From contig JABVCK010000029.1 in the NCBI GenBank assembly GCA_013540605.1, positions 257,022 to 321,021 on the forward strand: a stretch of 64,000 nt of DNA. The letters run 5' to 3'. A program made the position numbers and the translations under genes. The DNA comes from Bacillota bacterium (GTDB lineage: Bacteria > Bacillota > Clostridia > Ch29). Below the pieces are notes generated by a model. That model saw nothing but the letters and a program-made list of their open reading frames with translations. It did no database searches and had not been told where the DNA came from. Positions 733 through 18,955 of this stretch are shown here, piece after piece (within the stretch, counting starts at the first letter, position 1; each line of letters begins with the position of its first letter).

Positions 733-794
733 AAATGAAGGGAAAACCGTTTTTTTGTAGAATAGTAATGCTGTACGGGAGGGATTCGTGAATT

Positions 795-1685: not shown

Positions 1686-1703
1686 AAATTGGGAGGTAGG
1701 TAA

Positions 1704-2153
1704 ATGAAAGTTGCCCGGCACGCCAAAATCCTTGAATTGATCGAAAACAAAGAAATTGAAACCCAGGAGGAGCTAGCGGAAGAGCTTAAAAAAAGCGGTT
1801 TCAACATTACCCAGGCCACAGTTTCCAGGGATATCAAGGAGTTGCGATTAATCAAGACGCTGAGCGAAACAGGCAAGTATAAGTACACTACTATAAAACC
1901 CCAGGACAGTGAACTTGTCGACCGGCATGTGAAGGTTTTCGCCGATTCAGTATTGTCAATCGATTACGCATCAAATATAGTTGTGATGAAAACCATCCCC
2001 GGTGCTGCACAGGGAGCGGCTGCTGCGATTGATACACTGGATTTGAGCGAGGTGGTCGGCAGCATTGCCGGTGACGATACGATTTTTGTTGTGGTAAGGG
2101 ATCATCAAAGAGCTGTGGAAATTGTGAACAAATTCAAGAAGCTGATAGAATAG
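1704..2153 (+). CDS. argR: Arginine repressor ArgR
   Basis: There is an N-terminal winged-helix region (ELIENKEIETQEELAEELKKSGFNITQATVSRDIKEL) and a C-terminal oligomerisation/arginine-binding domain. It sits in the conserved position before recN. Confidence 0.9.
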   Translation: MKVARHAKILELIENKEIETQEELAEELKKSGFNITQATVSRDIKELRLIKTLSETGKYKYTTIKPQDSELVDRHVKVFADSVLSIDYASNIVVMKTIPGAAQGAAAAIDTLDLSEVVGSIAGDDTIFVVVRDHQRAVEIVNKFKKLIE

Positions 2154-2170
2154 ATTGGGGGTCAACCTTT

Positions 2171-3868: not shown

Positions 3869-3882
3869 ATAGTGCTTTTTTA
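3853..3882 (+). terminator. Rho-independent terminator after recN
   Basis: Hairpin AGCACT-agat-AGTGCT is followed by TTTTTTATTT. The recN stop codon lies inside the stem. Confidence 0.6.
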
Positions 3883-4020
3883 TTTGAAAAAATGGCTAAA
3901 TACACAGTATTTTTATAGCATAAATAGGTTTTTAAAAGGTTAACTTAAAAATAAGAAATCATCATTTCAATTTGGAGGTGGAATTGAAAAAGGCTCTTGG
4001 GCTTGGGAGCGTGATACAGA

Positions 4021-5346
4021 TTGCGGAAATGGCGTAGAGCAGTGCTGATAGCCCTTTTTCTTGCAGTGGCTGTAGCTTCTGCAACTGTTCTGTATGATAT
4101 ATATAGTTTTATTTCCATGCCCCAGGAATATCTGATAGTAGAAGGCGAAGAACAGACATTGGACTTTAAACTCCCACTGAAGATCCATGCTGTCAGCCAA
4201 GAAGGGACAATAAAACTAAACGGGCTTGACATTACGGGCGGCGGCATAGGCTTCATAAGCAGCAAACCCCTGACGATCCAGACCTCAGCTAAAGGCAGTG
4301 CCGTCATAGAGTTTAAACTGTTCGGCTTGATACCCATCAAGAGGATGACGGTGTCCGTCGTTCCGCCGGTTAAAGTAATTCCCGGAGGACAGTCTATAGG
4401 TGTAAAGCTTTATACCCAGGGCGTGCTCGTAGTTGCAGTTGCAGAAGTCACGGGTATCGATGGCAGAGCCTATAACCCCGCTGTTCAGGCCGGAATCGCT
4501 GTAGGAGATTCAATAATTGAGATAAATGGAATAAAGGTAAGGGACGCGGAACACGTTATAAGAATTCTGGAAAACAGCAAGGGAGAAGAAATACCTTTGG
4601 TGATTAAACGGGGCAAACAGACTCTCAACAAGACCATAAAGCCCGTGAAAAGCCATGAGGATGGCAAATACCGTATAGGAGCCTGGGTAAGAGATAAGAC
4701 GGCAGGAGTTGGAACCCTCAGCTTTTTTTGCCCTGAGACCGGGAACTTTGGCGCCCTTGGGCATGCAATAACGGATGTGGACACAGGGCTGATGCTTTCG
4801 GTCGAAGAAGGGGAAATCCTCGAGTCCCGGGTAGCATCTATTCAAAAGGGAGAAAAAAGCAGGCCTGGAGAGATTAGAGGGATTTTTTTTGAAGAGCAGA
4901 ATAAGCTGGGAGTTATCGAAAAGAATACGGAATTCGGCATATACGGGGTGATGAGCAAAATCATTGAAAACCCGTACTATCCTGAACCGATACCGGTTGC
5001 AATGCACCAGCAGGTCAAGGAAGGTTCCGCCCATATCCTGACAACCGTAGATGAAAATGTAGAGATGTATGAGGTCGAGATACAGAGAATAGCACGACAG
5101 TCCTATCCGGAACCGAAGAGCCTAATCATTAAGGTAACGGATAAACGGCTGCTTGAAAAGACAGGCGGTATAGTGCAGGGCATGAGTGGAAGTCCGATCA
5201 TACAAGATGGCAAGCTTGTTGGAATGGTGACTCATGTCTTTGTAAATGACCCCACCCGTGGATACGGGATTTTTGCTGAATGGATGATTTACAATTCCAA
5301 CCTAAATCAAAACGGTGACGCTACCGAGGTTGATAAAGCTGAATAG
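4021..5346 (+). CDS. spoIVB: Stage IV sporulation protein B (SpoIVB), an S55 serine peptidase with a PDZ domain
   Basis: There is an N-terminal membrane anchor, a PDZ-like region (GDSIIEINGIKVRDAEHV) and a C-terminal peptidase with a GMSGSPI serine motif. The start is TTG. The recN-spoIVB-spo0A order is classical. Confidence 0.85.
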   Translation: MRKWRRAVLIALFLAVAVASATVLYDIYSFISMPQEYLIVEGEEQTLDFKLPLKIHAVSQEGTIKLNGLDITGGGIGFISSKPLTIQTSAKGSAVIEFKLFGLIPIKRMTVSVVPPVKVIPGGQSIGVKLYTQGVLVVAVAEVTGIDGRAYNPAVQAGIAVGDSIIEINGIKVRDAEHVIRILENSKGEEIPLVIKRGKQTLNKTIKPVKSHEDGKYRIGAWVRDKTAGVGTLSFFCPETGNFGALGHAITDVDTGLMLSVEEGEILESRVASIQKGEKSRPGEIRGIFFEEQNKLGVIEKNTEFGIYGVMSKIIENPYYPEPIPVAMHQQVKEGSAHILTTVDENVEMYEVEIQRIARQSYPEPKSLIIKVTDKRLLEKTGGIVQGMSGSPIIQDGKLVGMVTHVFVNDPTRGYGIFAEWMIYNSNLNQNGDATEVDKAE

Positions 5347-5442
5347 GAGCCTTAAAGGCCCCTATTCAGCCTATTAATTTGCAGAAAAATATTATTGCAT
5401 AATGAGGAAATCACAGTCAAATTAGATAAATTTGGTATTATA

Positions 5443-5469
5443 GAAGGAATCGATTTTCCTTTGTCGAAT
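5443..5469 (+). promoter_or_regulatory. Candidate sigma-H-type promoter for spo0A with an overlapping Spo0A (0A) box
   Basis: gaAGGAATc-N11-GtcGAAT matches the sigma-H consensus RnAGGAwWW-N11-12-RnnGAAT. TGTCGAA at 5462-5468 matches the 0A-box consensus TGNCGAA. Confidence 0.45.
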
Positions 5470-5512
5470 TACTAAGTTGTCAACCAAAAATATAAGAAAA
5501 GGAGGGCTCCTT

Positions 5513-6307
5513 TTGGCTGAAAAAAAGATAAAAATATTAATAGCCGATGATAACAAAGAATTCTGTGAGATTGTTGGGGACTACCTATCCAGGGAAAACG
5601 ATATTGACCTGGTAGGAACTGCAAATGACGGGTTTGAAGCGTTGGAACTGATTAAAGAAACAAACCCCGATGTAGTGGTGCTTGACATTATCATGCCGCA
5701 CCTGGATGGTTTGGGTGTTTTGGAGAAGCTTAATACACTGGAGATTGAAAAAATGCCTAACATTGTTGTTTTATCGGCGGTAGGACAGGACAAGATTACT
5801 CAGAGGGCGCTGGCGCTGGGTGCGGATTATTACATAGTAAAACCCTTTGACATGCAGATCTTCATCAAGAGAATCCGTCAGATGATGGACAACAATATAA
5901 TACAGGTGGAAAAGAGAAGAAAGAATCAGCCTGAAAACTTCTTCACCGAAGGGCAAAGCCTGGACGTAGAGATAACAAACATAATTCACGAGATAGGCGT
6001 GCCCGCCCATATTAAAGGATACCTGTACCTGCGTGAGGCGATAAAAACCGTGGTGAACGATATAGAACTGCTGAGCGCGGTAACCAAGGAACTGTATCCC
6101 AGCATAGCAAAGAAGTACAATACCACGGCGAGTAGGGTTGAAAGGGCAATAAGGCATGCAATAGAGGTTGCGTGGAGCAGAGGCAAGGTAGATACAATCA
6201 ACAGCCTGTTCGGGTACACCATTCACAACGACAAAGGGAAGCCCACCAACTCTGAATTTATAGCGATGGTTGCCGACAAGATAAGGCTTAAGCAGAGGAT
6301 TGGCTAA
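5513..6307 (+). CDS. spo0A: Sporulation master regulator Spo0A (response regulator)
   Basis: There is a receiver domain ([10 protein letters not shown]...[12 protein letters not shown]) and the Spo0A-specific C-terminal DNA-binding domain ([18 protein letters not shown]). The likely start is TTG at 5513, 5 nt after the RBS AAAAGGAGGG. The upstream ATG at 5477 is also in frame. Confidence 0.9.
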
Positions 6308-6321
6308 AAAAAAAGAGAAAT

Positions 6322-6364
6322 GCACCCCGTTATACACGTGAAAACCTGTAGCGGGGTTTTTTGT
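6322..6364 (+). terminator. Rho-independent terminator after spo0A
   Basis: CACCCCG...CGGGG stem followed by TTTTTTGTTTG. Confidence 0.55.
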
Positions 6365-6444
6365 TTGATTGGGCGCGATTAATACTCAAACGGTGAATAT
6401 TAGCAGGCTAGTAGATGATATATTGGCATTAAACTGGTTTAATT

Positions 6445-7239
6445 TCAATGGAGTGAGGGATTGCCTGTGGTTGGTAAAATACCAACAGTTCCGAAGAATA
6501 CCGTTCGGAAGCTGTTGGTATTTTTATACTGTCTAACGGTTGCTTTCGGGATTTTTGTCTTGTAACAATTTTTCATATTTTCGTAATACCGGATGATAAG
6601 CTTTCCTTGTCTAAGTTGGTCAGGATATTTTGATAAAACAGATTCTAATAAATCCTCTAGGCGGTTCTGACAGTGTGTATTGCCTGGGTCCAAGTAAAGA
6701 GCAATGGCTTCGGAATATTGCCCGGCAAAGGCAGCAGATATTTGATAACCGGTTTTGCCTCTTTTTCTGGGGAAGTATCCTTTATCGGCAAACTCATAGG
6801 TCTTACCACCTGCTATTAGGCCAGACATATCAACATCAACGATGACATCATTATGAGAAGCAGTAGAAAGACTATGTTTGCCAAATAGCTCATTATGAAT
6901 ACTCTGAAGCTGCTTTATGTTTTCCTCACCGGTACGGGTGAGCAGGGTATTAATCTGGGACTGGTCTGGGAAGCGTTCCATACCGAGTAGGTTTGCAGCC
7001 AACTTCTCAGGACCTAATACCTCATTAATGTCTTTGGTAGACTCACAGCCCATGGCTATAGAAGCTATGATAGTAAGTAACTTTTGGTAAACGTAGTATC
7101 TGACTTCCTTCATCTTGAGGCTGAAAGCCTTAAATGGTGCGAAAAAATTAATATCAAGACCAAACTGCAGCACAGATGCCAGCCATGCAGAAGTAGTTTC
7201 CTGGTTGCAATCACTATTTGAAACTGTTATCCTATCCAT
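6445..7239 (-). mobile_element. Truncated DDE transposase. Only the N-terminal roughly 264 aa of an IS4-superfamily (IS1380/IS1634-like) transposase survive, making this an IS remnant.
   Basis: The first-D region reads DVDMSGLIAGGKTYEFADKGYFPRKRGKTGYQISAAFAG...YLDPGNTHCQNRLEDLL. This is the same D...G/K...PGNT architecture as the intact IS1634-like transposase at 12205-13842. The ORF stops after 264 aa. The roughly 130 bp left before the spo0A terminator cannot encode the missing half. Confidence 0.6.
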
Positions 7240-7383
7240 AGGGTAATACCACCTTTCGATTAGTGTTTTGATGAATTATTACTTCGATAGGCTCGGGTAT
7301 TGCCCTCTTTGTATTTGTTGGGGTATTTACCATGGATTATATATCCAATTAATCTTTATTTGTTTGTACTAAATCTAGGTAAC

Positions 7384-8040
7384 TATAATGATTATTTTAC
7401 TCAAGAGGCAAAGAAAAGAAACAGCCGGATATTTATTGCAGATGAAAAAGAAATCCCGGATGGTTATCTGGAAAAGTTTAGATATATTGTTTTCCCGGAA
7501 AATATTGCTATTGCACTGGCTGCAGCTAAAGCGCTAAACATTGACAAGGATACTGCGTTGAGGGGAATGTTAAACGCTGACCCTGATCCGGGCGCCTTAA
7601 TGATATATCCATTAGATAACGAAAGCCCAACATATTTTGTCAATGGTTTTGCCGCCAATGTTCCAAACTCAACACGAATGATCTGGGAGCATATAGCAGC
7701 CATCGGATATCCAACGGAAAACCCCATGGTAATTGTAAATTGCAGACCTGATAGGGTTGATAGGACATTACAGTTTGCAGAAGATGTCTTGCCAAATATG
7801 AATATTGATATTCTCGTTGCAATGGGTCAGACAGTGAAACCAATTACTGAAGGGGTAAATACTAAAAAATATCTCCACAGAAATACATAAATGCTGAAGG
7901 TTTGTCTCCACATGAGGTTTATAAAATAATTAAGGATTATTTTTTAAACAGAATAATTTTTGGCGTTGGAAACATTCACGGCGGCGGGGAAGAATTGGTC
8001 GAACTAATAATTACGGATAAAGTGCCGCAATTACTTTAGA
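7384..8040 (+). pseudogene. pgsB: C-terminal remnant of poly-gamma-glutamate synthase PgsB/CapB. It is truncated at the 5' side by the IS remnant and frameshifted near the 3' end.
   Basis: Collinear with B. anthracis CapB residues about 190-end. The segment KKRNSRIFIADEKEIPDGYLEKFRYIVFPENIAIALAAAKALNIDKDTALRGMLNADPDPGALMIYPL...FVNGFAANVPNSTRMIWEHIAAIGYPTENPMVIVNCRPDRVDRTLQFAEDVLP aligns to KERNTKVIIADNSKITDEYLRKFEYMVFPDNASLALGVAQALGIDEETAFKGMLNAPPDPGAMRILPL...FVNGFAANDAS...IMNCRADRVDRTQQFANDVLP. The last part (NRIIFGVGNIHGGGEELVELI vs NRVIYGVGNIHGAAEPLIEKI) is in a different frame. The switch is at an A6 run around 7862-7880. The N-terminal roughly 190 codons are absent. Confidence 0.75.
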
Positions 8041-8097
8041 AATCTTAAATATGAAATAAAAGGGTTTCAGTAAATCTTATTGCGAGGGAGGTGTGAA

Positions 8098-8331
8098 ATG
8101 AATACTTTATACGGGCTAATACAGAACAGACAAGACATGAACACATCGGGAACTATCAGAAAAAACAGTCAGAATGAAGCTCTTGCGGTTTTTAATGCTT
8201 TAACGTTGAAAGAAAAATGCCTGTATCTTATTAAGATCAGCAAGAGGAATACCAGCGATCAAGCGCTTGTGCTGATGGGATTAGCTCTATCGATTATTGC
8301 TGTGAATTATCTGTTTTCTGTCATTATTTAA
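8098..8331 (+). CDS. Hypothetical small protein with a C-terminal transmembrane helix
   Basis: RBS GAGGGAGG lies 5 nt before ATG 8098. It encodes 77 aa with a hydrophobic C-terminus (ALVLMGLALSIIAVNYLFSVII). No recognisable family. Confidence 0.4.
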   Translation: MNTLYGLIQNRQDMNTSGTIRKNSQNEALAVFNALTLKEKCLYLIKISKRNTSDQALVLMGLALSIIAVNYLFSVII

Positions 8332-8349
8332 GAAAGGAGTGAGATAAGC

Positions 8350-9219
8350 ATGAAAAAAGAATTTATCAAAATTCTAGCTTTAGTTGTAGTGTTTACATTT
8401 GGTATTGGTATAAGCACATATGCCTTCACAACAGGTTATAGTAGTTTTGATGAACTATTTGCATCTGAAGATGGTGCAGATTATACAATTAAAACTGATA
8501 TCGGAAGCGATACAACAATTTTAGCTCTCCACGGAGGCGGTATTGAAAGAGGTACTTCGGAATTAGTTGAAGCATTGAGCGGGTACGGTGAATATAACAC
8601 TTACTTATTTGAAGGACTTAAAGAGACTAATAATTGGAGTCTTTTTTTAAGGGCCATCGATTTTGACGAACCAACAGCCGTCAGTTTAGTCCAAGATTCG
8701 GATTACACTCTTTCAGTTATCGGAGCTGCAGGCGATGACGAGGTTACTTATATCGGTGGTCAGAATAAGTTGCTGGCAGAACTGATCAGATTGCATCTTA
8801 TTACCAAAGGATATAAGGTAAAAACTTTAAGCCTTCCTGATCGCATTGCCGGGATTATGGACAGCAATATAGTGAATAAGAATAAATTGCTTAATGGCAG
8901 TTATCAGATCGGCGGCGTTCAGATAGCTATTTCCAAAGGTTTAAGAGATAAACTCGTAGCTGACTCCAGTATATTAAACGATTATTCAGACTCCATCCAT
9001 GAAGCGCTAAGCGAAAGCTGGCCAATAATAGTTTCCCACTTGCAGAAAATTACTAAATCCGGCGGGTCTAAATCTAATGGGGTTAACGGGTTTTTGAATA
9101 AGCTTAACCCTTCAAAGCCTAACTTCGATAAGAAGATAAATAAGATATTAGAAAAAGATGCAAAGACTCCCCAGGATTTACTTGAAAATGTTGAAGACGA
9201 TCTATTGACAGAAGAGTGA
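8350..9219 (+). CDS. PghP-family poly-gamma-glutamate hydrolase paralogue (secreted). It is likely catalytically impaired.
   Basis: Signal peptide present. There is a conserved HGGGIERGTSEL block and a DFDEP block. The paralogue's SIHG His is Ile here (SVIGAAG). The LEIS Glu is Ala here (GGVQIAIS). Confidence 0.7.
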   Translation: MKKEFIKILALVVVFTFGIGISTYAFTTGYSSFDELFASEDGADYTIKTDIGSDTTILALHGGGIERGTSELVEALSGYGEYNTYLFEGLKETNNWSLFLRAIDFDEPTAVSLVQDSDYTLSVIGAAGDDEVTYIGGQNKLLAELIRLHLITKGYKVKTLSLPDRIAGIMDSNIVNKNKLLNGSYQIGGVQIAISKGLRDKLVADSSILNDYSDSIHEALSESWPIIVSHLQKITKSGGSKSNGVNGFLNKLNPSKPNFDKKINKILEKDAKTPQDLLENVEDDLLTEE

Positions 9220-9248
9220 CCTAAAAAAGTATTTGCTATAAATCCTAT

Positions 9249-9284
9249 AAGGCTGGAGCTGCCAAAGGTAGCTTGCCAGCCTTT
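9249..9284. terminator. Bidirectional terminator between convergent hydrolase genes
   Basis: AAGGCTGG...CCAGCCTT stem in the 72-bp gap between convergent ORFs. Confidence 0.5.
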
Positions 9285-9291
9285 CGCTATA

Positions 9292-9984
9292 CTACTGAAT
9301 GCTGCTGATTGCCTCACTTATTGCGGAAACATAGCTTTTCAATCTATCGTTATTACCCGATAAAAACTGTGTCCTTAAACCCTTTGATATTTCTAACTGT
9401 ACTCCTCTTCCGTTCATATTCTTATTCACTATATTATTTGGCGATATACCGGCCAGATTCTTCGGAGTATCTAACACAGTAAAACCGTACTTAGTCAGAG
9501 ATGCTTTTATTCTGTTTCCTAATTCAGTGTCGAGGCCTCCGATATAGGTGAATTCTTCTGAACCGGAACACCCATGGATTGATAATGTCGTTTTAGATTT
9601 TGAAACCATTTCCAATGCAGTTGGTTCATCGAATTTGTCTGAAGTAATATGCAATTCTAAATTACCTTTGCTTTTTATGCCCATATATGAATAATAGTTG
9701 TAATTATTATGGGAAGATAAGGCATAAGCTAATTCAGTAGTACCTTTTTCAATTTTTCCTCCATGAATTGCAATAACTATAACATCAGAATCTGTCACAT
9801 TGGTTTCAATTTTATAGTCAACATTTTTTACTTTATTTGAACTTAATTCTTTGAAATTGTTATAGATGTCACCAGAAACTGCAGCAGTTGGCTGACTAAA
9901 CATCAAAATTGTAAGACAACAAGAAACAATAAGTCGTGTAGAACTTAAAAAACTGTATTCTCTCTTTATAATCATACCTATCAA
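9292..9984 (-). CDS. PghP-family zinc-dependent poly-gamma-glutamate hydrolase (secreted)
   Basis: Strong collinearity with phage PghP / Bacillus YndL-type hydrolases: IHGGKIEKGTTEL, LHITSDKFDEP, SIHGCSGSEEFTYIGG, NNIVNKNMNGRGVQLEISKGLR. An N-terminal signal peptide is present. Confidence 0.75.
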   Translation of the reverse strand: MIGMIIKREYSFLSSTRLIVSCCLTILMFSQPTAAVSGDIYNNFKELSSNKVKNVDYKIETNVTDSDVIVIAIHGGKIEKGTTELAYALSSHNNYNYYSYMGIKSKGNLELHITSDKFDEPTALEMVSKSKTTLSIHGCSGSEEFTYIGGLDTELGNRIKASLTKYGFTVLDTPKNLAGISPNNIVNKNMNGRGVQLEISKGLRTQFLSGNNDRLKSYVSAISEAISSIQ

Positions 9985-10170
9985 CTCACTTTTCTTATGA
10001 ATGCTATATTCTATTATAAAGGATTTTTTTTTGCATTTCAGCAGTTATTGACAATTATCGTGTATTATTTTCAACTATCTCATGTATATTATTTCTGTTT
10101 GCAAAGAAGGAAGATAATAGAAAATAGCGAATGGTAGTATATAGAAGAAAGGCATTATTATTTATGAGGT

Positions 10171-11325
10171 ATGAAGATGGAATTATGGGACTTATACGAT
10201 GAAAATAGATGTTATTTAAACAGAACTCATTCTCGAGAAGCGTTGATGGTCACTGGCGAATATCATATAGTTGTGGAAGTATGGACAGCCAACAGCAGGG
10301 GTGAAATTCTGCTAACCCTTCGGCATCCGAACAAGAAGGATTATCCGAACACATGGGAGAATACCGGAGGTTCCGCTTTGACAGGAGAGAGCAGCAGAGA
10401 AGCCGCAGTTCGAGAGTTAAAGGAGGAGACGGGTATTGCGGCATTGGAATCAGAACTTACATTATTGGGTACTAAAAAGGAAGAAACAGCATTTGTAGAT
10501 ATCTATATAGTTCATAAAGATATTCCTGTTGAAAGTTTGACCATGCAAGAGGGTGAAACTGTTGAGGCACAATGGGTATCATTGAAAAGGCTTGATGAAA
10601 TAATCTCCGAAGGCTTGTTGGCACTGCCAGTGGTTGAACGTCTCAAGCCCATACGTGAAGAATTCGAAAAACATGTTTTAATGAATAAGAGATTTAAAGC
10701 AATATGCTTTGATATGGATGGTACATTAATCAGAAACACGAACTCAGTCGAGTTTTTATGCAGATTAAACAATAGACATCAAGAGGCAAAAGAAATTGAA
10801 GAAAAGGAAGACCTTGGTGAGCTTTCCTGGATAGAAGCAGATCATAGAAAGGCTAAGCTTCTTGAGGGATTGGAAGTAAGCAGGATCAAGGATAATTTTG
10901 ATAAATATATAAAAGTAATACATAACCTGGATATGGTTTTAAGAAAGCTCAGAGATACCGGATTTAAAGTTATACTGGTTACAGCCGGACTTGTTCAGGT
11001 TGCAGAAGAATTCAGCGCTGTACATCCGTTTGATAAAGTCTATGGGAGTAATTACGAAGTAATTGAAGGTAAGTTCACCGGCAGGATCATAAAACACCTG
11101 GGAGATAAGGGAAAGCTAAGCTCTGTAATTGATTTTTGCGAATTTTGCAAGATATCCATTGATGAAGTAATTTCGATAGGGGATAGCGCATCAGATCTAG
11201 AAGTTTTTAAACACAGCGGAAAGTCTATAGCAATTAACTATTCAAAAAAACTGGTCGGAAAAGCTGATGCATATATTGAAACAGAGAACTTAGAAGAAAT
11301 CTTGAAGTTTATAATAACTGACTAA
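10171..11325 (+). CDS. Bifunctional Nudix hydrolase / HAD-superfamily phosphatase fusion (PSP-like)
   Basis: The N-terminal half has a perfect Nudix box GX5EX7REUXEEXGU (GSALTGESSREAAVRELKEETGI). The C-terminal half has HAD motifs I (FDMDGTLI) and IV (GDSASDLEVF) and a phosphoserine-phosphatase-like cap. Confidence 0.8.
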   Translation: MKMELWDLYDENRCYLNRTHSREALMVTGEYHIVVEVWTANSRGEILLTLRHPNKKDYPNTWENTGGSALTGESSREAAVRELKEETGIAALESELTLLGTKKEETAFVDIYIVHKDIPVESLTMQEGETVEAQWVSLKRLDEIISEGLLALPVVERLKPIREEFEKHVLMNKRFKAICFDMDGTLIRNTNSVEFLCRLNNRHQEAKEIEEKEDLGELSWIEADHRKAKLLEGLEVSRIKDNFDKYIKVIHNLDMVLRKLRDTGFKVILVTAGLVQVAEEFSAVHPFDKVYGSNYEVIEGKFTGRIIKHLGDKGKLSSVIDFCEFCKISIDEVISIGDSASDLEVFKHSGKSIAINYSKKLVGKADAYIETENLEEILKFIITD

Positions 11326-11468
11326 AATAATGAAACAGATTGTAAAAGAGCACAGGAATTTGCCATGGGAATAAAAAAACATTGATCCAGTAGGTTTTTC
11401 AGAATGAAAACCCGGCAACAAAAACTGGCGGATTAACGTCTAATTTTATATAATAATGAACGACAACT

Positions 11469-12251
11469 TTGAAGAAAGCGAGCATATCCATGGAGAATAT
11501 CAGGCAGGAAATATATATGGCAATTGGAACGTTATGGTCATTTCAGTGTATTTATTTGGGTATCAAGAAACGAAAAGGCAAAAACTTCTACCACGAGCCA
11601 AAACTCATGAACCTTTTACCAACAGGCGGCAGTACACTTCTATTGGTGTACGACTTCATGGAAGCCTGGAAACTGGGTACCGACAGCGTTTCAAATTTTA
11701 ACATTATACTACTTGGAATATTGGTTTTATCGACCGTTTTCGTTGTTTTTAGAAGCTTTTTGGGTGGTAAAAAGTATACGGTCTATAATATTGCCAAAAC
11801 CGACATTGAGGCAATATTGCTGCAGACATTGAAAAAGTATGAACTGGAATGCAAAAAAGAAGAAAAAAATCCCCATTCCATAGTAACCAAGATATTACTA
11901 GAACAATACGATGCTTCTGTAGAAATGACGCAAAGGGGAGGAAGCGGGACCACATTCGATTTGGTATTTGAAAAATTCGACCGGGTATACAATTTTGAAG
12001 ATATAGTTGCGGATATTAAGGAGAGCATTAATGAAAGCACAAAAGTTAGCAGGTTCCGGGGTGTACACGAATTTGCAGCCGCTATTGGAATTGTATTGTT
12101 TTTTGTTTGGATGAGTATTCCTGAGTTTAGGAGAAAAGAGTGCAAAAAACGCTGTGACGCCTTTAGTGGAGGCGTTTCAGCGTTTTTAAAAATGTCCTAT
12201 TTTTTTAAGTTGACGGATAAATCCAGTTTTGTGCTTGCCCGGAATGCGTGA
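11469..12251 (+). pseudogene. Small membrane-protein gene disrupted by IS insertion. Its original C-terminus resumes at 14253-14278.
   Basis: The ORF runs from the gene into the IS end. The last 94 bp before the IS (12015-12108) are repeated after the IS (14159-14252). In the second copy the frame continues into ...IGIVLFFVLFTPTTFS*, which is the native C-terminus. Confidence 0.55.
12015..12108. repeat. 94-bp direct repeat, left copy, flanking the IS1634-like element. It is a long target-site duplication.
   Basis: 94/94 identical to 14159-14252 (attaaggagagcattaatgaaagc...ttgtattgttttttgttt). Confidence 0.85.
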
Positions 12252-14158
12252 GGGTCATATTGCTTTTGAGCAATGGTTGCTTGAGGGTCTCTGCCAAATC
12301 CAGATAAGTTTGTGTGATCCTTGTTGGTGTCACAATGTTGTTTGGAAAATCGCCCTGCACCAGAACCAGGGGTTCCCTTATCGCTTCCATAATCCGGGCC
12401 GCCGAGACACTGATATTCTTCTGCGTTTCCAGGATGTATTGAGCATATCGCAACATACACAGACTGATGAAGCATATTGCAAAATGACCGTGAATGTGGT
12501 CGTCGGTCCATACAAAGACCGGGCGAGCTCGTAAATCGGTCTTTAGAACCCGGAAACTTTCCTCAATCTTCCATAGCCCTCTGTAGATAGTGCTGACCTG
12601 CTCTGTACCCAGAGCAAGATGATTCGTGATGACTGCGTAGTAGCCGTCATACCGGGCAGCAGCCTGGATTTTCTCTTCATCAATAGTCCAGTTTTCGGAG
12701 TCCAGATCCATCTGCAAATACTGATTGCAGCCCCGCCTGATTGCGGCTTTCAGCTGATATGGTTTATCCAACCGCTTCTTCAGCCGCTCAATCATGCGTT
12801 CCCGGTCAGACCGGTCCTTGGCTGCCCGCTTTGCAGACCAGGTCAGATGGATGTTCACCGGAATCTCTTCGGTCCTGTACTTTCTGGGTCGCCCTCTCTT
12901 TTTGTTTTCCTTGTTTTCTTCCGGCGCAACCGGGACTTTGATCTCAATATTCTGCCGAACAATCTTCGACCGAAACGTCACTTCCCCGGTCTCCGGATCC
13001 ACCACATCCTGCCAGTCTTCTTCCTGCCAGACCAGTTCCTTAAAGGCTTCTGGAGACCGTTTAAGCGTGTAACTGATTACAAAGTCATAACCTTCTCCAA
13101 TGAGGTATTCCAGATTGCTTCCGCTGTTGAGACCCCTGTCGGCCACCACGGTAATCCTGTCCAAGCGATACAGGTTCCTGAGATTTTCAACAGACTTTCT
13201 TAGCGTGCTCTGGTCCACCGTGTTTCCAGGAAACAGTTCATAGGTAATGGGAATGCCATTATTATCTAGCAACAGGCCCATGACCACCTGCACCTCGTTA
13301 TTTTTGTGATCCTTTGAAAAGCCGAACATTCTCAGTTCCCCCCAACGGGTACTCTCAAATGCATACGTTGTGACGTCATAGTAGGCTTCCGTGCTGTGGC
13401 GGTCGGTCTTCTTTTCGAAGAAGGTGCACAGATGTCCAATCAGAGCCTCTTTTTGATCCGCCAGGACATCCAGTACATCATAAAAAAGATCCAGACCCAA
13501 AGGTTGAATGCCGGCATAGCGGTGCTGTTCGGATGCACCGGCATGGATGCTTGTGGGACTGGCACAGCGGTGGGCGGCCAGGTAATAAAGGGCCTGGGCC
13601 ACGGCTTGGGCATTACGTTTGCCGCAGTTTTGAATGAAAAACTCATCCAGTGCCATGTGGTTCCACAGTTGTTTCACCAGGGCATGGCCGAAAGCATAAG
13701 AGGGGACAACGTCCTCAGGTAGGGTGATGTCCGCCACCGGAACCTGAAGTGACAGGGGTGCCCTGGATAGTTTTTGTTCCTTCGTGATCCGGGCGGCCTC
13801 TTTTTTTAGTTTCGCTATGATATCCGGGTCTTCGGTCAGCATCCGCTCGTAATTGCCCAGGGTTTTGACGACCCGGGTTTTCTTTTTCTTGGTGCCCGGG
13901 ATGCGGGATCTTCCCGGAACTGGATGACCCGGGCTTTTCCTGAGCCTGTGATGGCAACGTACATAAAACCCTCCTGCGTATTTGTCTATTTGAACTCATT
14001 GTATCATTTCGAGCACCAAAAATCAACAATATAACAGGAAATAACAGGACAAAATATTGAGATAAATTTTGCATCAAAAAAACCCGGGAAACCTGATAGA
14101 TTCAGCATTCTCGGGTGGTACTATTCGTTGTTATTGGCGATTATCTCCTAAAGTCAGG
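12109..14158 (-). mobile_element. IS1634-family insertion sequence, about 2.05 kb
   Basis: It is bounded by the 94-bp direct repeats. Imperfect terminal inverted repeats are CCTGAGTTTAGGAGA (12120-12134) and the reverse complement of TCTCCTAAAGTCAGG (14144-14158). It encodes a 545+ aa DDE transposase. Confidence 0.8.
12205..13842 (-). CDS. IS1634-family DDE transposase. The body is the 545-aa ORF. The first roughly 30 codons are encoded in the 0 frame starting at 13964 (-1 relative to the main ORF).
   Basis: Typical IS1634-family blocks are present: YYDVTTYAFEST...FGFSKDHKNNEVQVVMGLLLDNNGIPITYELFPGNTVDQSTL, ADRGLNSGSNLEYL, and YDGYYAVITNH...WKIEESFRVLKTDL. The upstream ATG at 13964 encodes MYVAITGSGKARVIQFREDP. 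This is the family's MxVxxTxSGK N-terminus. It lies in another frame with no stop between it and the main ORF. Confidence 0.8.
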   Translation of the reverse strand: MLTEDPDIIAKLKKEAARITKEQKLSRAPLSLQVPVADITLPEDVVPSYAFGHALVKQLWNHMALDEFFIQNCGKRNAQAVAQALYYLAAHRCASPTSIHAGASEQHRYAGIQPLGLDLFYDVLDVLADQKEALIGHLCTFFEKKTDRHSTEAYYDVTTYAFESTRWGELRMFGFSKDHKNNEVQVVMGLLLDNNGIPITYELFPGNTVDQSTLRKSVENLRNLYRLDRITVVADRGLNSGSNLEYLIGEGYDFVISYTLKRSPEAFKELVWQEEDWQDVVDPETGEVTFRSKIVRQNIEIKVPVAPEENKENKKRGRPRKYRTEEIPVNIHLTWSAKRAAKDRSDRERMIERLKKRLDKPYQLKAAIRRGCNQYLQMDLDSENWTIDEEKIQAAARYDGYYAVITNHLALGTEQVSTIYRGLWKIEESFRVLKTDLRARPVFVWTDDHIHGHFAICFISLCMLRYAQYILETQKNISVSAARIMEAIREPLVLVQGDFPNNIVTPTRITQTYLDLAETLKQPLLKSNMTLTHSGQAQNWIYPST

Positions 14159-14252
14159 ATTAAGGAGAGCATTAATGAAAGCACAAAAGTTAGCAGGTTC
14201 CGGGGTGTACACGAATTTGCAGCCGCTATTGGAATTGTATTGTTTTTTGTTT
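14159..14252. repeat. 94-bp direct repeat, right copy
   Basis: Identical to 12015-12108. Confidence 0.85.
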
Positions 14253-14449
14253 TATTTACTCCAACGACGTTTAGTTAAGAAAGAAGCTCAAAATTAGGCC
14301 ATGTTTATTCTTATACTTCTTTATTAAGCGAAAGACGCCTGAGAAATTATCTTGGGCGTTTTTAAGTTATAAGTATTTTTCAGGAGTTGTTTGTTTTAGT
14401 AACAAATTATCTAAATTGCGCCCATGCTAACGATGGCGCGTTTGGATAT

Positions 14450-14477
14450 TTGCACGGGGAATTATATGTGGTAGAAT
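14450..14477 (+). promoter_or_regulatory. Strong sigma-A-type promoter
   Basis: -35 TTGCAC, 16-nt spacer, and an extended -10 TGgTAGAAT. Confidence 0.5.
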
Positions 14478-14594
14478 AAGGTAGAAGTTTACTTCTAAGG
14501 TTCAGGGACGCCGTTAGCCCGCCGCCCGCTATACGAATGGGGCTCAATCTAAGCGAAATCTTGGGGGATTTATTTGAAGGGGAGGATATAAGTA

Positions 14595-14693
14595 ATGAAC
14601 CTTCTAATTGCCGGCTGGGTTTTTATACTAGGGCTTATGGTATATGTTACAGTGCTGGATATAGGTAAGCTAATTAAGATAAGGGCTATCTGA
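14595..14693 (+). CDS. Candidate 32-aa hydrophobic small protein or leader peptide
   Basis: RBS AAGGGGAGGA lies 8 nt before ATG. The product MNLLIAGWVFILGLMVYVTVLDIGKLIKIRAI is a single TM helix. It follows a roughly 115-nt leader downstream of the 14450 promoter. It is below the ORF-track size cutoff. Confidence 0.35.
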   Translation: MNLLIAGWVFILGLMVYVTVLDIGKLIKIRAI

Positions 14694-14736
14694 TGTATAA
14701 TAAAAAATGAATCTGCTATATGCAGCGGCAGAGAGG

Positions 14737-15429
14737 ATGAGAAAAATGCTGCCTGATACAATTAAACTGATTTTATTCGACATGGCAGGTACGACAGTAG
14801 ATGACCGATGCGCCGGTTCATCTTTTGTTGTCAGCGCATTCATCAAGTCATTCAACAAACATGGATTTGAAGTGAGCCTGGAGACTGTTAATAAATATAG
14901 AGGAATGCAAAAGCGTCAGGCAATACATGACATTATTAGCAGTATTGATCAGGATCGAAGTTCCGGGGAAATAATAGACGGCATTTATAAAGAGCTTTTA
15001 TCAGAACTAAAGGTTCATATTCCCAAAATGAAGGAAATTGAAGGCACCAGTGAGATATTTCACTTCCTGCAAAGTAGAATGATTAAAGTAGGTGTGGGAA
15101 GCGGTTTCCCAAGGGAAATTATTGACATGATAGTATCACAGTTGGGCTGGAAGGCTAAAGGCCTGGTTGACTATATCCAAAGCGCAGACTCTATTGGGGC
15201 AAGCCGGCCAGACCCCAAAATGATATACCACATGATGAATGAATTTGGCATATGCAATCCCCATGAAGTAGTAAAAGTGGGGGATACGGTGGTGGATATT
15301 CTTGAAGGCAAAAATGCCGGTGTCTGGACGGTGGCAGTATTAACCGGTTCACAGTCTAAAGAGCAATTAGAATCTGTGGGACCGGATTATATGCTTAATA
15401 GTGTCAAAGATCTGCCTACATTATTTTAA
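14737..15429 (+). CDS. HAD-superfamily hydrolase, PhnX-like (phosphonoacetaldehyde-hydrolase-like)
   Basis: Motif I FDMAGTTVD matches the phosphonatase-type DxAGT. Motif IV is VGDTVVDILEG. The start is uncertain among 14707, 14737 and 14746. Confidence 0.7.
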   Translation: MRKMLPDTIKLILFDMAGTTVDDRCAGSSFVVSAFIKSFNKHGFEVSLETVNKYRGMQKRQAIHDIISSIDQDRSSGEIIDGIYKELLSELKVHIPKMKEIEGTSEIFHFLQSRMIKVGVGSGFPREIIDMIVSQLGWKAKGLVDYIQSADSIGASRPDPKMIYHMMNEFGICNPHEVVKVGDTVVDILEGKNAGVWTVAVLTGSQSKEQLESVGPDYMLNSVKDLPTLF

Positions 15430-15466
15430 TCCTATTTTTCAACAAAATAAAGAAAGGAGAGAGAAT

Positions 15467-16114
15467 ATGGTTAAACAGCAAAACATAAAAAATAGGGGGA
15501 TACTTTTCACCTATGACAGTTTTCCAGAGTGCGGCTTAAACATCTATCTTATAAAAGGGAAAAGATTCAACTACATTATTGATACCGGATTAGGCCCATT
15601 AAGCCTTGAGCCGGTAAAAGAACACATAAAAAACGATGGCAAACAGGTTATAGTAATCAATACCCATTACCATTGGGATCATATCTGGGGCAATAATGAA
15701 TATAAAAATTCAGTGATTGTATCCCACGTACTGTGCAGGGAAATCATCGAGGAAAAGTGGAATGAGATGATGGGCAAGTATAATGATTATTGTTATGGAC
15801 CGGTAGCAAAATGCCTGCCGAATTTAGTTTTTGAATCAGAGATTTACTTTCCGGAAGACAAAATCAGGCTATTCCATACGCCCGGACATACGATAGATTC
15901 CATCAGCATTCTCGATGAAGAAGAAAAAGTAATTGTAGTTGGGGATAATGTTGGTGACACAATAGAAGAACTTATTCCAAGCATTTATTCTAAAAAGGAT
16001 GATTACATAAATACATTGAAAAGATATGAAGAATTGGACTTCGATACTTGTATATCAGGGCATAACGTAGTCTTAGGGAAAGAAGCGATAGGAGAAATTC
16101 TGAAGATGCTGTAA
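15467..16114 (+). CDS. MBL-fold metallo-hydrolase
   Basis: HYHWDH (HxHxDH) zinc-binding motif, a downstream HTPGHT motif, and RBS AAGGAGAGAG. Confidence 0.8.
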   Translation: MVKQQNIKNRGILFTYDSFPECGLNIYLIKGKRFNYIIDTGLGPLSLEPVKEHIKNDGKQVIVINTHYHWDHIWGNNEYKNSVIVSHVLCREIIEEKWNEMMGKYNDYCYGPVAKCLPNLVFESEIYFPEDKIRLFHTPGHTIDSISILDEEEKVIVVGDNVGDTIEELIPSIYSKKDDYINTLKRYEELDFDTCISGHNVVLGKEAIGEILKML

Positions 16115-16204: not shown

Positions 16205-16496
16205 GAATAAAGATTATAAGTAATAATGAAAAGGCTTTGACGAGGAGGAGTATATATCTCCCTGAAGCGCAGAGAGGGGATGAGGGTGGAAATTCCCCGT
16301 GAAGGGTATATAGAAGGTAGCCTCCGAGCCGTGAACCGAAATCTTGTGAGAGTAGACTTCAACGGATTTCCACCGTTACAGGGGAGGTAGTATCGGCATG
16401 TATGCCCGTACTATGTCTGAGTGTGTACATTTGTACGAACCTAGGTGGTACCGCGGAGATTCAAACCTTCGTCCTATACAGGGCGAGGGTTTTTTA
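16205..16496 (+). promoter_or_regulatory. T-box riboswitch leader of valS
   Basis: The conserved T-box sequence AGGTGGTACCGCGG is at 16443-16456. It is followed by terminator stem CCTTCGTCC...GGGCGAGGG plus a T6 run. An AGAGA-containing stem I region lies upstream. The specifier codon is not confidently assigned. Confidence 0.75.
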
Positions 16497-16537
16497 TTGC
16501 GAAGGCCAATATACATAACACAGGGGAGGTATTTTAT

Positions 16538-18955
16538 ATGCTGGAAAAGAAGTATGAATTCAAGGAAATAGAGCCTAAGCTGCAAAAATTCTGGGAAGGG
16601 GAAGGGATATACCATTATGAGCCGGATAGTTCAAAGGGCGTATATTCTATAGATACACCGCCGCCTACGGTAAGCGGGAACCTGCATATAGGCCACATTT
16701 TCTCCTATACCCAGGCTGAAATGATTGCAAGGTTTCACAGAATGCAGGGACAAAACGTGTTTTATCCCTTTGGATTTGACGATAACGGTCTGCCCACAGA
16801 GAGGCTTGTAGAAAAGGAAGAGGGCATAATAGCTCAAGACATGCCAAGGAGTGAGTTTATTAAGAAATGTATGAGTACCACACAAAAATACGAAGCGGAA
16901 TTTAAAGAATTATGGCAATCCCTTGGTTTTAGTATTGATTGGAGTCTTCAATATGAGACTATCAGTCCCCTGGCTCAGAGAATATCTCAAAGGTCATTTT
17001 TGGACCTCGCCAGGAAAGGGAAAGCATATCTGAAGGAAACGCCCGTGTTATGGTGTACCAGCTGCCAGACCTCGATTGCCCAGGCAGAATTGGACTCTTT
17101 AGAGAAAGAAGCTGCTTTTAACTGGATACCGTTTCAGGTTGAAGATGAAGAACTCATAGTTGCAACCACAAGGCCCGAGCTGCTTTGCGGATGCGTTGCT
17201 CTACTCATCCATCCTGAAGATGAACGCTATGTTAAGTATATTGGAAAGGAAGCAATAGTACCGCTGTATGATTTCCCGATACCGATTTTGGGAGATAAAA
17301 AGGTCAGTAAGGAAAAGGGTACCGGTATAGTAATGTGCGCAACCTTTGGCGATACTACGGATTTGGAATGGTATAATGTTTACAGGCTTCCGTACAAGAA
17401 AATCATAAATCCCGATGGAACTATAAGTGATGATGTACCTTTTATTCACGGCCTGAATGTTGGAGAGGCAAGGGAGAAAATAATCAACAAGCTAAGGGAA
17501 GAAGGCCTTTTGAAAAGGAGTGAAAAGATACTCCATACCGTTGCTGTCCATGAAAGATGCGGCAAAGATATTGAAATAATCACTTCAAAGCAGTGGTTTA
17601 TTGATATCCTGAACGATAAGGACAAATTCCTTGATGCTGCTGATAAAATCAACTGGTATCCATCTTCTATGAAGACAAGATATGAAATATGGGTACAGAA
17701 TCTCAAGTGGGACTGGTGCATATCACGGCAAAGATATTTTGGAGTTCCGTTCCCTCTGTGGTACTGCAAGGATTGTGGCTCCATTATATTTGCCAGGGAG
17801 GAGGACCTGCCCGTAAACCCGTTGGAATCTTCGCCAAAAGAGCCGTGCTCCTGCGGGAGCAATAGTTTTATCCCTGAAGATGCGGTCATGGATACATGGG
17901 CAACATCATCATTAACGCCTATGATCAACTCAAAATGGGGAGAAAAGGGAGACGCGAGCCAGAAGCTTTTACCTATGAACATGCGTACACAAGCGCATGA
18001 GATCATTCGTACCTGGGCATTTTACACAATTGTAAAGAGTATATATCATACAGGGCAAATCCCCTGGAAGGATATTATGATTTGCGGCTTTGTAATGGCA
18101 AAGCAGGGAGAAAAAATAAGCAAGTCCAAAAATAATGCCTCATTATCTCCCAAAGCTTTAATCGACAAGTATTCCGCCGACGGTATCAGGTATTGGGCAG
18201 CTAATTCAAAACTTGGAACTGATACAATGTTTTCAGAGGACGAACTACAGACATCAAACAGGTTTTTGACAAAGCTATGGAACGCCGCCAGGTTCAGCGT
18301 GATGCATCTGGGAGATTATCAGAAGCAAAAGGATGTAAAGCTGATGCCGATTGACAGGTGGATTGTGGAAAAATATAAAGATGCGGAAGCAAAAGCAGCG
18401 GCATACCTGGAACAGTATGAGGTCGGTGCTGCACGGTATGAGATTGATGAATTCTTCTGGAAGGATTACTGCGACAACTATCTTGAGATCGTCAAAGAAC
18501 GGCTTTATAAACCTGAAATCCATGGGTATGAGAACAGGCTGTCCGCCCAGTTTGCTCTTTACACCAGTTTCCTTGGCATACTTAAGACGTACGCCATATA
18601 TGTTCCTCATATAGTTGAAGAAATCTATCAGGCATATTTCAGGGAATATGAGGAAACCGCATCCATCCACAAAACCATCTGGAGCAGGGCTGACGAAGCT
18701 GATGAAGATATCCTCCGGTTTGGGGAAACGGTCAAACAGATTTTATTGGAAATAAGAAGATACAAATCAGAGAGAAATCTATCTCTAAAGACCGAGGTGG
18801 ATACTATTCGGATATTCTGCCCGCAGAGCTTTATACCTTTGCTGGAGGAAACAAGGAAGGACCTGCATGCCTGTACCGGGGCCAAAACAATCGAGTTCAG
18901 GGAAGGAGAAGGGCTGGCGGTTATTATTGGCAAGGGAGGATTTTGCTGTTATTGA
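16538..18955 (+). CDS. valS: Valyl-tRNA synthetase, a class I enzyme of 805 aa
   Basis: HIGH region PPPTVSGNLHIGH and KMSKS variant KISKSK. The DTWATSS motif is present. It is shorter than the canonical bacterial ValRS because the C-terminal coiled-coil appears to be missing. Confidence 0.8.
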   Translation: MLEKKYEFKEIEPKLQKFWEGEGIYHYEPDSSKGVYSIDTPPPTVSGNLHIGHIFSYTQAEMIARFHRMQGQNVFYPFGFDDNGLPTERLVEKEEGIIAQDMPRSEFIKKCMSTTQKYEAEFKELWQSLGFSIDWSLQYETISPLAQRISQRSFLDLARKGKAYLKETPVLWCTSCQTSIAQAELDSLEKEAAFNWIPFQVEDEELIVATTRPELLCGCVALLIHPEDERYVKYIGKEAIVPLYDFPIPILGDKKVSKEKGTGIVMCATFGDTTDLEWYNVYRLPYKKIINPDGTISDDVPFIHGLNVGEAREKIINKLREEGLLKRSEKILHTVAVHERCGKDIEIITSKQWFIDILNDKDKFLDAADKINWYPSSMKTRYEIWVQNLKWDWCISRQRYFGVPFPLWYCKDCGSIIFAREEDLPVNPLESSPKEPCSCGSNSFIPEDAVMDTWATSSLTPMINSKWGEKGDASQKLLPMNMRTQAHEIIRTWAFYTIVKSIYHTGQIPWKDIMICGFVMAKQGEKISKSKNNASLSPKALIDKYSADGIRYWAANSKLGTDTMFSEDELQTSNRFLTKLWNAARFSVMHLGDYQKQKDVKLMPIDRWIVEKYKDAEAKAAAYLEQYEVGAARYEIDEFFWKDYCDNYLEIVKERLYKPEIHGYENRLSAQFALYTSFLGILKTYAIYVPHIVEEIYQAYFREYEETASIHKTIWSRADEADEDILRFGETVKQILLEIRRYKSERNLSLKTEVDTIRIFCPQSFIPLLEETRKDLHACTGAKTIEFREGEGLAVIIGKGGFCCY

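Follow-up and report, generated by a model that had tools for sequence, protein, structure and literature searches.

Known PGA loci and the window copy

The closest described loci for poly-gamma-glutamate (PGA) synthesis are pgsBCAE-pgdS of Bacillus subtilis and capBCADE of Bacillus anthracis. Removing pgsB, pgsC or pgsA stops PGA synthesis in Bacillus (PMC5751247). PGA is degraded by, among others, the PghP family of hydrolases, which was first characterised in phage (PMC6506827). Outside the Bacillales pghP rarely co-occurs with pgsB, and an arrangement like the one reported below is not described in the respective survey (Mamberti et al., PMC4497714). Here we analyse a stretch of 64,000 nt from a Bacillota bacterium (assembly GCA_013540605.1, contig JABVCK010000029.1, positions 257,022 to 321,021), referred to as the window. 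Remains of a PGA locus are located downstream of spo0A in this window. They comprise a broken pgsB gene, a gene for a small membrane protein and two convergent genes of the PghP family, PghP1 and PghP2.

With a probability of roughly 80% we read positions 6376-10020 as one copy, acquired horizontally and since inactivated, of a PGA cassette that is conserved among anaerobic Firmicutes. The decayed PGA locus with insertion sequence (IS) scars that had been proposed from the sequence is thereby borne out. The pgsB gene is truncated and frameshifted, pgsC is missing and a remnant of an IS1380-family element is present. In the intact cassettes described below, the positions of PghP1 and PghP2 are termed PghP-long and PghP-short.

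A conserved cassette in anaerobic Firmicutes

A search with the reconstructed PgsB fragment led to a locus in a metagenome-assembled genome (MAG; GCA_016278515.1, locus L082), and PgsB proteins of 76-88% identity were found in other organisms. L082 encodes a response regulator, a histidine kinase, PgsB (380 aa), PgsC (150 aa, PF14102), a 77-aa open reading frame (ORF), a PF05908 protein of 281 aa and, convergent to these, a second PF05908 protein of 226 aa. A contig of the Logan assemblies (L083) repeats this locus. Including L082 the cassette is intact in six genomes, the others being Desulfoscipio gibsoniae (L088), Andreesenella formicacetica (formerly Clostridium formicaceticum; L089), Dehalobacterium formicoaceticum (L090), a Desulfitobacterium genome (L157) and Alkaliphilus pronyensis (L158). 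The first three of these named species alone belong to three families and two orders. The gene order is an OmpR-type response regulator, a histidine kinase, pgsB, pgsC (present in 6/6), a gene for a membrane protein of 74-77 aa and the gene for PghP-long. The PghP-short gene adjoins, usually in convergent orientation, and some copies add a double NlpC/P60 protein of ~700-790 aa.

Neither pgsA/capA (PF09587, PGA_cap) nor a recognisable PgsE/CapE gene is found within 6-10 kb of the intact cassettes. Likewise, PF09587 has no match in the window ORFs of 6445-16114 nor in ten unassigned ORFs elsewhere in the window. A description of the cassette layout or of a PghP pseudoenzyme was searched for as well, and nothing relevant was found in the literature searched. 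The layout is apparently undescribed.

Other copies are decayed. In loci L084-L087 pgsB is split and pgsC is followed by genes of the IS110 family or of other IS, and Desulfallas thermosapovorans retains pgsB and pgsC as fragments of 265 aa and 46 aa. As insertion sequences or truncations have disrupted 3 of the 10 loci examined, our data suggest that the trait is often gained and lost. A collagen-repeat BclA_C gene (exosporium-type) is located just upstream of the decayed cassette in L086 (7538-8440), beside three tyrosine-recombinase genes.

Inactivation of the window copy

The features of the window are summarised in Table 1. The window is collinear with the intact cassettes at 74-90% nucleotide identity, minus pgsC, and cassette homology ends at ~10019. 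At the other end a short histidine-kinase remnant, which is also matched by residues 274-298 of the L082 kinase (tblastn, E 5.8e-4), marks the left edge of the acquired DNA, ~10 bp past the spo0A terminator. It is followed by the region upstream of pgsB. This region consists of a terminator-like hairpin with a U-run at 6473-6527 (fold energy -36.7 kcal/mol, z -3.35) and of promoter-proximal sequence which is cut at 6588. A known RNA element at this site was considered and rejected. Upstream of pgsB Rfam yields no family match in the window or in seven cassette loci, and the conserved hairpin resembles an ordinary terminator.

Cassette homology breaks off at 6588 and is picked up again at 7379, corresponding to pgsB nucleotide ~482. 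The IS1380-family remnant between these points has taken the place of cassette sequence that begins ~140-170 nt upstream of the pgsB start and extends to codon ~155; the ribosome-binding site (RBS) is lost with it. It is single-copy in the window. The transposase matches positions 35-212 of 419 of NF033539 with 62.6 bits, which is below the cutoff of 180. The element is not complete, with one end kept. The last ~47 codons of the transposase ORF are antisense to the pgsB-upstream region.

The residual pgsB does not reach the score of a full-length gene (TIGR04012, 205.8 bits at a cutoff of 222.7), its main frame covering positions 159-332 of the 380 of the profile. The P-loop is missing together with codons 1 to ~155; the L082 orthologue carries it as GTRGKST near residue 30. 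In addition, a -1 frameshift is located in a run of six A at 7864-7869, where nucleotide alignments show seven A in L085, L088 and L089. Further downstream 7379-8081 aligns with L082 10482-11203 and 8087-9047 with L082 11677-12646. The pgsC gene of L082 (11220-11672) lies between these blocks, and tblastn finds no pgsC match anywhere in the 64-kb window. Because pgsB is truncated and frameshifted and pgsC is deleted, both of which are needed in Bacillus, PGA synthesis from the window locus is impossible.

The damage is summarised as follows. An IS1380-family element sits in pgsB, and a single later deletion took away pgsB codons 1 to ~155, the promoter-proximal sequence and the distal half of the IS itself. 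Further damage comprises the -1 frameshift in the residual pgsB, the excision of pgsC between two RBS-like motifs and the shortening of the kinase gene to 57 bp.

Table 1. Features of the window around the PGA cassette copy, ordered by position.
Feature	Position	Strand	Evidence or remark
spoIVB	4021-5346	+	ORF listing and profile searches
spo0A with terminator	5477-6307	+	ORF listing and profile searches
Histidine-kinase remnant, 57 bp	6376-6432	+	blastn, 79-82% to cassette-side histidine-kinase genes of L082, L089, L090
264-aa transposase ORF	6445-7239	-	IS1380 NF033539 and Pfam DDE_Tnp_1_4 (PF13701), N-terminal half only
pgsB-upstream region	6473-6588	+	~6476-6588 87% identical to L085 1278-1387; shorter matches in L088, L158
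IS1380-family remnant, 789 bp	6590-7378	-	one IS end, 5' leader, transposase codons 1-217
pgsB-like 196-aa ORF	7300-7890	+	TIGR04012 positions 159-332 of 380, E 8.5e-61
pgsB pseudogene, codons ~156-375	7363-8024	+	tblastn with L082 PgsB, two frames: 7363-7869 and 7866-8024
Small ORF as listed	8080-8331	+	true start 8098, 77 aa
pgsC deletion junction, ~470 bp lost	8081-8087	+	break between two RBS-like AAGGAG motifs
77-aa cassette protein, intact	8098-8331	+	one C-terminal hydrophobic segment, residues 54-77
PghP1 (PghP-long), intact	8350-9219	+	PF05908, E 2.9e-43
PghP2 (PghP-short), intact	9292-9984	-	PF05908, E 1.3e-60; convergent with PghP1
Nudix and HAD-IB (SerB-like) fusion gene	10171-11325	+	Pfam NUDIX and HAD
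ORF without family	11469-12251	+	ORF listing; 5' part of split membrane-protein gene
Split membrane-protein gene, 5' part	11469-12108	+	frame resumes at 14253, stop codon 14276-14278
94-bp target duplication, left copy	12015-12108		100% identity over 94 nt, repeat search and blastn
IS1634-family element, intact, 2050 bp	12109-14158	-	transposase 12205-13842 (-)
IS1634-family transposase	12205-13842	-	NF033559, 336.7 bits, cutoff 100
94-bp target duplication, right copy	14159-14252		repeat search and blastn
PhnX-like HAD gene	14707-15429	+	ORF listing and profile searches
MBL-fold gene	15401-16114	+	ORF listing and profile searches
T-box leader	16228-16479	+	108.8 bits, above gathering score
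valS	16445-18955	+	ORF listing and profile searches

The two PghP proteins and the small membrane protein

Both PghP proteins match PF05908 far above the cutoff of 22 bits (PghP1 148 bits, PghP2 204.7 bits). According to the account of PghP given in PMC6506827, His40, Glu45 and His103 bind zinc while His78 and Glu165 are catalytic. The same account, citing Fujimoto and Kimura 2012, states that alanine at His40, Glu45, His78, Thr80, His103 or Glu165 abolishes PghP activity.

PghP2 has the complete set of zinc ligands and catalytic His/Glu (H40, E45, H78, H103, E165). It matches the PDB entries 21dc, 5onj and 3a9l with E values of 1e-29 to 1e-34 and was aligned to the phage PM1 hydrolase, YndL/PghL and PghP. 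Residues 11-36 form a hydrophobic N-terminal segment, and PghP2 is predicted to be a secreted PGA hydrolase. A promoter-like site with 10 of 12 positions is located upstream at 10041-10013 on the minus strand, in a region that yields no more such sites than shuffled sequence. PghP2 may still act as a secreted PGA depolymerase in the host and would be the sole cassette protein of the window with a plausible remaining function.

PghP1 differs. The alignment with YndL/PghL (5onj) shows SVIG instead of SLHG, LFLRA instead of LHITS and QIAIS instead of QIEMS. His78 is thereby replaced by Phe, Thr80 by Arg, His103 by Ile and Glu165 by Ala, and positions 40/45/78/103/165 read H, E, F, I, A. The replacements are a consistent feature of the clade. 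All of the ~80 cluster representatives of the PghP1 clade (59-100% identical, 215-347 aa) have F/Y at 78, I/V at 103 and A/S/G/T at 165, as opposed to the H, H and E that occupy these positions in each of the 37 more distant, canonical PF05908 proteins of the comparison. We also searched 1.84 billion representatives exhaustively and considered the 149 best clusters (50% identity). Of these, 9 have I at 103 together with A/S at 165, several of them also lacking Glu45, and 133 are canonical.

The Arg which anchors PGA carboxylates (Arg171 of PghL, Arg199 of PghP1) is kept in every sequence compared. The AlphaFold2 model of PghP1 (predicted local distance difference test score 84.5) yields target-normalised template modelling scores of 0.85 (5onj), 0.84 (21dc) and 0.86 (3a9l) in Foldseek. 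The clade moreover shares an N-terminal hydrophobic signal/anchor segment and a conserved helical C-terminal tail of ~80 aa, and the pairwise ratio of nonsynonymous to synonymous divergence (dN/dS) of PghP-long is 0.24-0.45. Because the required residues are replaced throughout the clade while the fold and the anchoring Arg are kept, PghP-long is probably an old, maintained non-catalytic member of the family which likely retains PGA binding. The original prediction of two PGA depolymerase paralogues added to a dead synthase has to be revised accordingly in two respects. Only PghP2 keeps the catalytic set, the PghP1 clade being without His78, His103 and Glu165, and both proteins are fixed members of the conserved cassette.

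The 77-aa protein shows 55-74% identity to the ORFs of 74-77 aa at the same position in L082, L088, L089 and L090. It has no match in Pfam, NCBIfam or PHROG and is predicted to be of the tail-anchored type. Since the operon promoter is lost, the small ORF and PghP-long are probably relics in the window. Two small-ORF slots of 76 and 77 aa are adjacent in Alkaliphilus pronyensis (L158, 5344-5574 and 5750-5983). The small ORF is partly repeated in Andreesenella formicacetica (L089, 6873-6962; 31 aa, 74% identity to the window ORF).

Probable horizontal acquisition

When the window is compared with the cassettes in four further hosts, three of which are named species of other families, the proportion of synonymous differences (pS) is 0.22-0.45 (synonymous divergence dS 0.26-0.69). 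PghP-short compared with Dehalobacterium is the exception (0.57). For spo0A versus its nearest relatives (≤81% protein identity) pS is saturated with 0.79-0.95; the control L025 was left out owing to an anomalous pS, probably caused by a mis-set frame. The cassette genes have a GC content at third codon positions (GC3) of 0.28-0.41, compared with 0.47-0.62 for recN, spoIVB, spo0A, valS and the ABC-transporter genes. The window PgsB is 76-88% identical to proteins of Desulfallas and Anaerovoracaceae; the host ValS is ≤66% identical to anything found. Moreover the genes around the cassette differ in every host. Low synonymous divergence across families, low GC3 and the host-variable context thus support, on the level of sequence signatures, a horizontal acquisition of at least the cassette core 6376-10020.

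Synteny was evaluated at both flanks. Among 80 spo0A loci on genome contigs the best relative is 81% identical, its contig ends ~950 bp downstream, and none shares the downstream genes. Among 65 valS loci on metagenome contigs the best full-length relative shows 66%, and a shared neighbourhood is found in none. In the nearest spo0A relative (L001, 10896-11147) a C-terminal fragment of a tyrosine recombinase follows spo0A shortly before the contig ends. Mobile DNA may have integrated repeatedly downstream of spo0A. One metagenome contig (L118, 3194-6616) carries a valS homologue (47%) followed directly by a Spo0A-like gene (45%), which is the reverse of the order in the window. In Desulfoscipio gibsoniae (L088, 9180-9251) a tRNA gene is located ~480 bp from the PghP-short end, a typical position of integrated islands.

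Counterarguments and alternative explanations

Several points weigh against an acquired and inactivated cassette, or against parts of that reading. The pgsB frameshift lies within a homopolymer, where a read-level error is possible; both assemblies nevertheless carry it. A second pgsB or an NlpC/P60 gene is not found in the 64-kb window by tblastn, and an intact pgsBC may lie elsewhere in the genome. Similarly, pgsA/capA is absent from the 6-10 kb around the intact cassettes and may occur elsewhere in these genomes, and in the literature searched no report of PGA production by any cassette host was found. PghP-long keeps His40 and mostly Glu45, so that a residual or altered activity is conceivable. 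Acquisition at the exact position beside spo0A would follow from sequence signatures, with no relative close enough to show an empty site. Finally, only the MAG contig spans 6355-6376, where the spo0A terminator meets the kinase remnant.

One alternative accepts the decay and concerns what came after it. Following the loss of the synthase, the three intact genes, or PghP2 at the minimum, might have been retained by selection as a secreted module that degrades the PGA of neighbours for glutamate scavenging or capsule stripping. The small ORF, PghP1 and PghP2 are indeed full-length and collinear with their intact orthologues, PghP2 keeps every catalytic residue, its hydrophobic N-terminal segment and the promoter-like site, and most non-Bacillales species with pghP have no pgsB (Mamberti et al., PMC4497714). 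However, if the decay set in only recently, intact ORFs by themselves do not demonstrate selection, and recent IS activity is indicated by the perfect duplication of 94 bp in the vicinity. The operon promoter is lost for the small ORF and PghP1, the pairwise dN/dS of 0.14-0.59 mostly reflects the history before the decay, and the promoter scan finds no more sites than expected from shuffled sequence. Repurposing is therefore possible but rather unlikely in our view.

An assembly artefact is far less probable. The contig would have been mis-joined at a repeated IS sequence and the patch beside spo0A would not be real. The source is a MAG, and two independent Logan contigs, L081 (window 1-6354) and L159 (window 7353-10130), break in the spo0A terminator and in the retained IS1380 end, thus flanking the IS1380 remnant. 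Such breaks are consistent with further IS1380 copies in the genome or with differences between strains at the edge of the island. Yet both flanks of the remnant belong to the same cassette, pgsB-upstream sequence on the left and internal pgsB on the right, which a chimeric join would not give. The kinase remnant is likewise cassette-associated, and the junction between spo0A and this remnant is outside any repeat. Exact-protein look-ups returned only short Logan contigs of the same sample, which served as an independent assembly check: in the Logan assembly of SRR6186653, positions 7353-10130 recur with 100% identity, and both the frameshift and the pgsC deletion are present there.

The least probable explanation is the suggested phage origin, by which the hydrolases would be phage- or prophage-derived PGA depolymerase paralogues that landed beside an unrelated dead synthase gene. 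It is in line with the phage in which the family was first characterised (PMC6506827) and with the matches of both proteins to PF05908 and phrog_4175, but was ruled out for practical purposes by tblastn against 50,697 phage records, two IMG/VR scans and PHROGs. The best phage identity of PghP2 is 44% (Listeria, Bacillus and Staphylococcus phages) versus 77-82% for the closest cassette orthologues, and neither scan of IMG/VR contains close relatives of PghP1 or PghP2. No phage structural, replication or integrase genes are found in 6300-16100 (Pfam, NCBIfam, PHROG), where PHROG matches only the hydrolase family itself and families of a general kind (Nudix, HAD, metal-dependent hydrolases). Both pghP genes occupy fixed positions of a chromosomal cassette in six other genomes, and PghP1 lacks three residues needed for hydrolysis. 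A decayed chromosomal cassette remains the preferred reading of 6376-10020.

Neighbouring genes and the IS1634-family element

The earlier inventory of the patch between spo0A and valS was confirmed by the ORF listing and profile searches. Every component was found, with some coordinates and identities refined. New relative to that inventory are the 94-bp direct repeat around the IS1634-family element and the membrane-protein gene split by it, the loss of pgsC, the kinase remnant and the degenerate active site of PghP1. Neither the Nudix-HAD gene nor the split membrane-protein gene belongs to the cassette; both were rejected as members, as tblastn finds no homologue beside any other cassette examined. 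The Nudix-HAD fusion layout occurs in 2 of ~120 homologues among the matches listed (P0200, P0245), the rest being mostly stand-alone HAD-IB or Nudix proteins. The HAD half is most similar to HAD-IB proteins that stand alone in Natronincolaceae, a lineage which the host Spo0A also resembles, and looks native to the host lineage. The source annotates this gene as phosphoserine phosphatase. GC3 of the Nudix-HAD, split membrane-protein, PhnX-like and MBL genes is somewhat low (0.35-0.42). Beyond that these genes carry no mark of acquired DNA, and an acquisition is not shown for them.

The split membrane-protein gene is interrupted by an intact IS1634-family element. Its assignment is based on a transposase above the cutoff, terminal inverted repeats and a flanking duplication. 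The terminal inverted repeats are imperfect, with 16 of 18 nt matching (CCTGAGTTTAGGAGAAAA and CCTGACTTTAGGAGATAA). Removal of the element and of one repeat copy restores a protein of 221 aa with two hydrophobic segments which has no family match in Pfam, NCBIfam or PHROG. Target duplications of the IS1634 family usually measure 5-6 bp, and 8-514 bp have been reported for IS1634 and IS1549 (PMC2266710). As the 94-bp repeat is perfect, it implies a recent insertion, which is an event separate from the decay of the cassette. To our knowledge IS1634 and IS1549 are the only elements of the family reported to make long, variable duplications, and we know of no mechanism for these.

Two further observations concern the remaining window. 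The T-box leader is located directly upstream of valS and overlaps its annotated start; hence the real start of this long, GTG-started ORF is probably further downstream. A 148-aa ORF at 25794-26240 aligns to alpha/beta-hydrolase profiles over no more than their first ~70 positions, with scores under the cutoffs, and may be a truncated gene.

Proposed function of the intact cassette

The window copy is a dead locus without great consequence for its host. Tracing it leads to a PGA cassette that is conserved and mobile and occurs in Desulfallaceae, Peptococcaceae, Desulfitobacterium and Natronincolaceae as well as in related MAGs. This cassette has no nearby pgsA, which is required in Bacillus, and always includes a PghP-family protein with replaced catalytic residues.

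In the intact cassette, glutamate polymerisation by PgsB and PgsC would proceed as in Bacillus. Outside the membrane the nascent chain could be handled by the tail-anchored protein and by an extracytoplasmic PghP-long without catalytic activity, in place of PgsA and PgsE. PghP-short, plus the NlpC/P60 protein where present, would trim or release the polymer, and the two-component system would regulate the operon. We tentatively suggest that the intact cassette is a PgsA-independent PGA synthase in which a dead, PGA-binding PghP-long and the 74-77 aa protein stand in for PgsA/PgsE and PghP-short trims the product, and that it has spread horizontally among spore-forming anaerobes not known as PGA makers. 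This proposal is doubtful as yet. If PghP-long is a non-catalytic PGA-binding subunit, it would represent a new case in which a biosynthetic machine has incorporated a pseudoenzyme, the known PGA producers would be widened to strict anaerobes and a minimal alternative synthase would be available for engineering. That the cassette has decayed repeatedly is possibly informative as well.

Comparison with known systems

Both mobile elements of the window have known counterparts. The IS1380 remnant matches NF033539 and PF13701 with the N-terminal half of its transposase. Unlike complete IS1380 elements it is reduced to 789 bp, the distal half being lost in the deletion that removed the 5' part of pgsB. 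The IS1634-family element resembles IS1634 of Mycoplasma mycoides and IS1549 of Mycobacterium smegmatis in its large DDE transposase, poorly conserved ends and long duplication. In contrast to most of the family, its 94 bp fall into the rare class of long duplications, here in a host of the Clostridia.

With regard to the hydrolases, PghP2 is like the zinc endo-hydrolases PghP and PghL (YndL; MEROPS M86) in its domain, in the catalytic His and Glu and in having all three zinc ligands. PghP1 shares the PghP/PghL fold and the equivalent of Arg171, but differs at His78, Thr80, His103 and Glu165 and adds a tail of ~80 aa. The pghP genes of the cassette are chromosomal genes of Clostridia, in contrast to the phage and prophage genes of Bacillales.

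The cassette itself resembles pgsBCAE-pgdS and capBCADE in that orthologous PgsB, a Mur-ligase-type amide ligase, and PgsC come first and a depolymerase is encoded beside the synthase. Its depolymerase is of the PghP (M86) type, whereas Bacillus uses PgdS (NlpC/P60) or CapD (gamma-glutamyltranspeptidase); some cassettes add an NlpC/P60 protein. Unlike in the Bacillus loci, the positions of PgsA/CapA and PgsE/CapE are held by an unrelated protein of 74-77 aa and a degenerate PghP-family protein. Taken together, the intact cassettes share the logic of the Bacillus loci, namely a synthase, extracytoplasmic handling proteins and a hydrolase, with a two-component regulation being probable.

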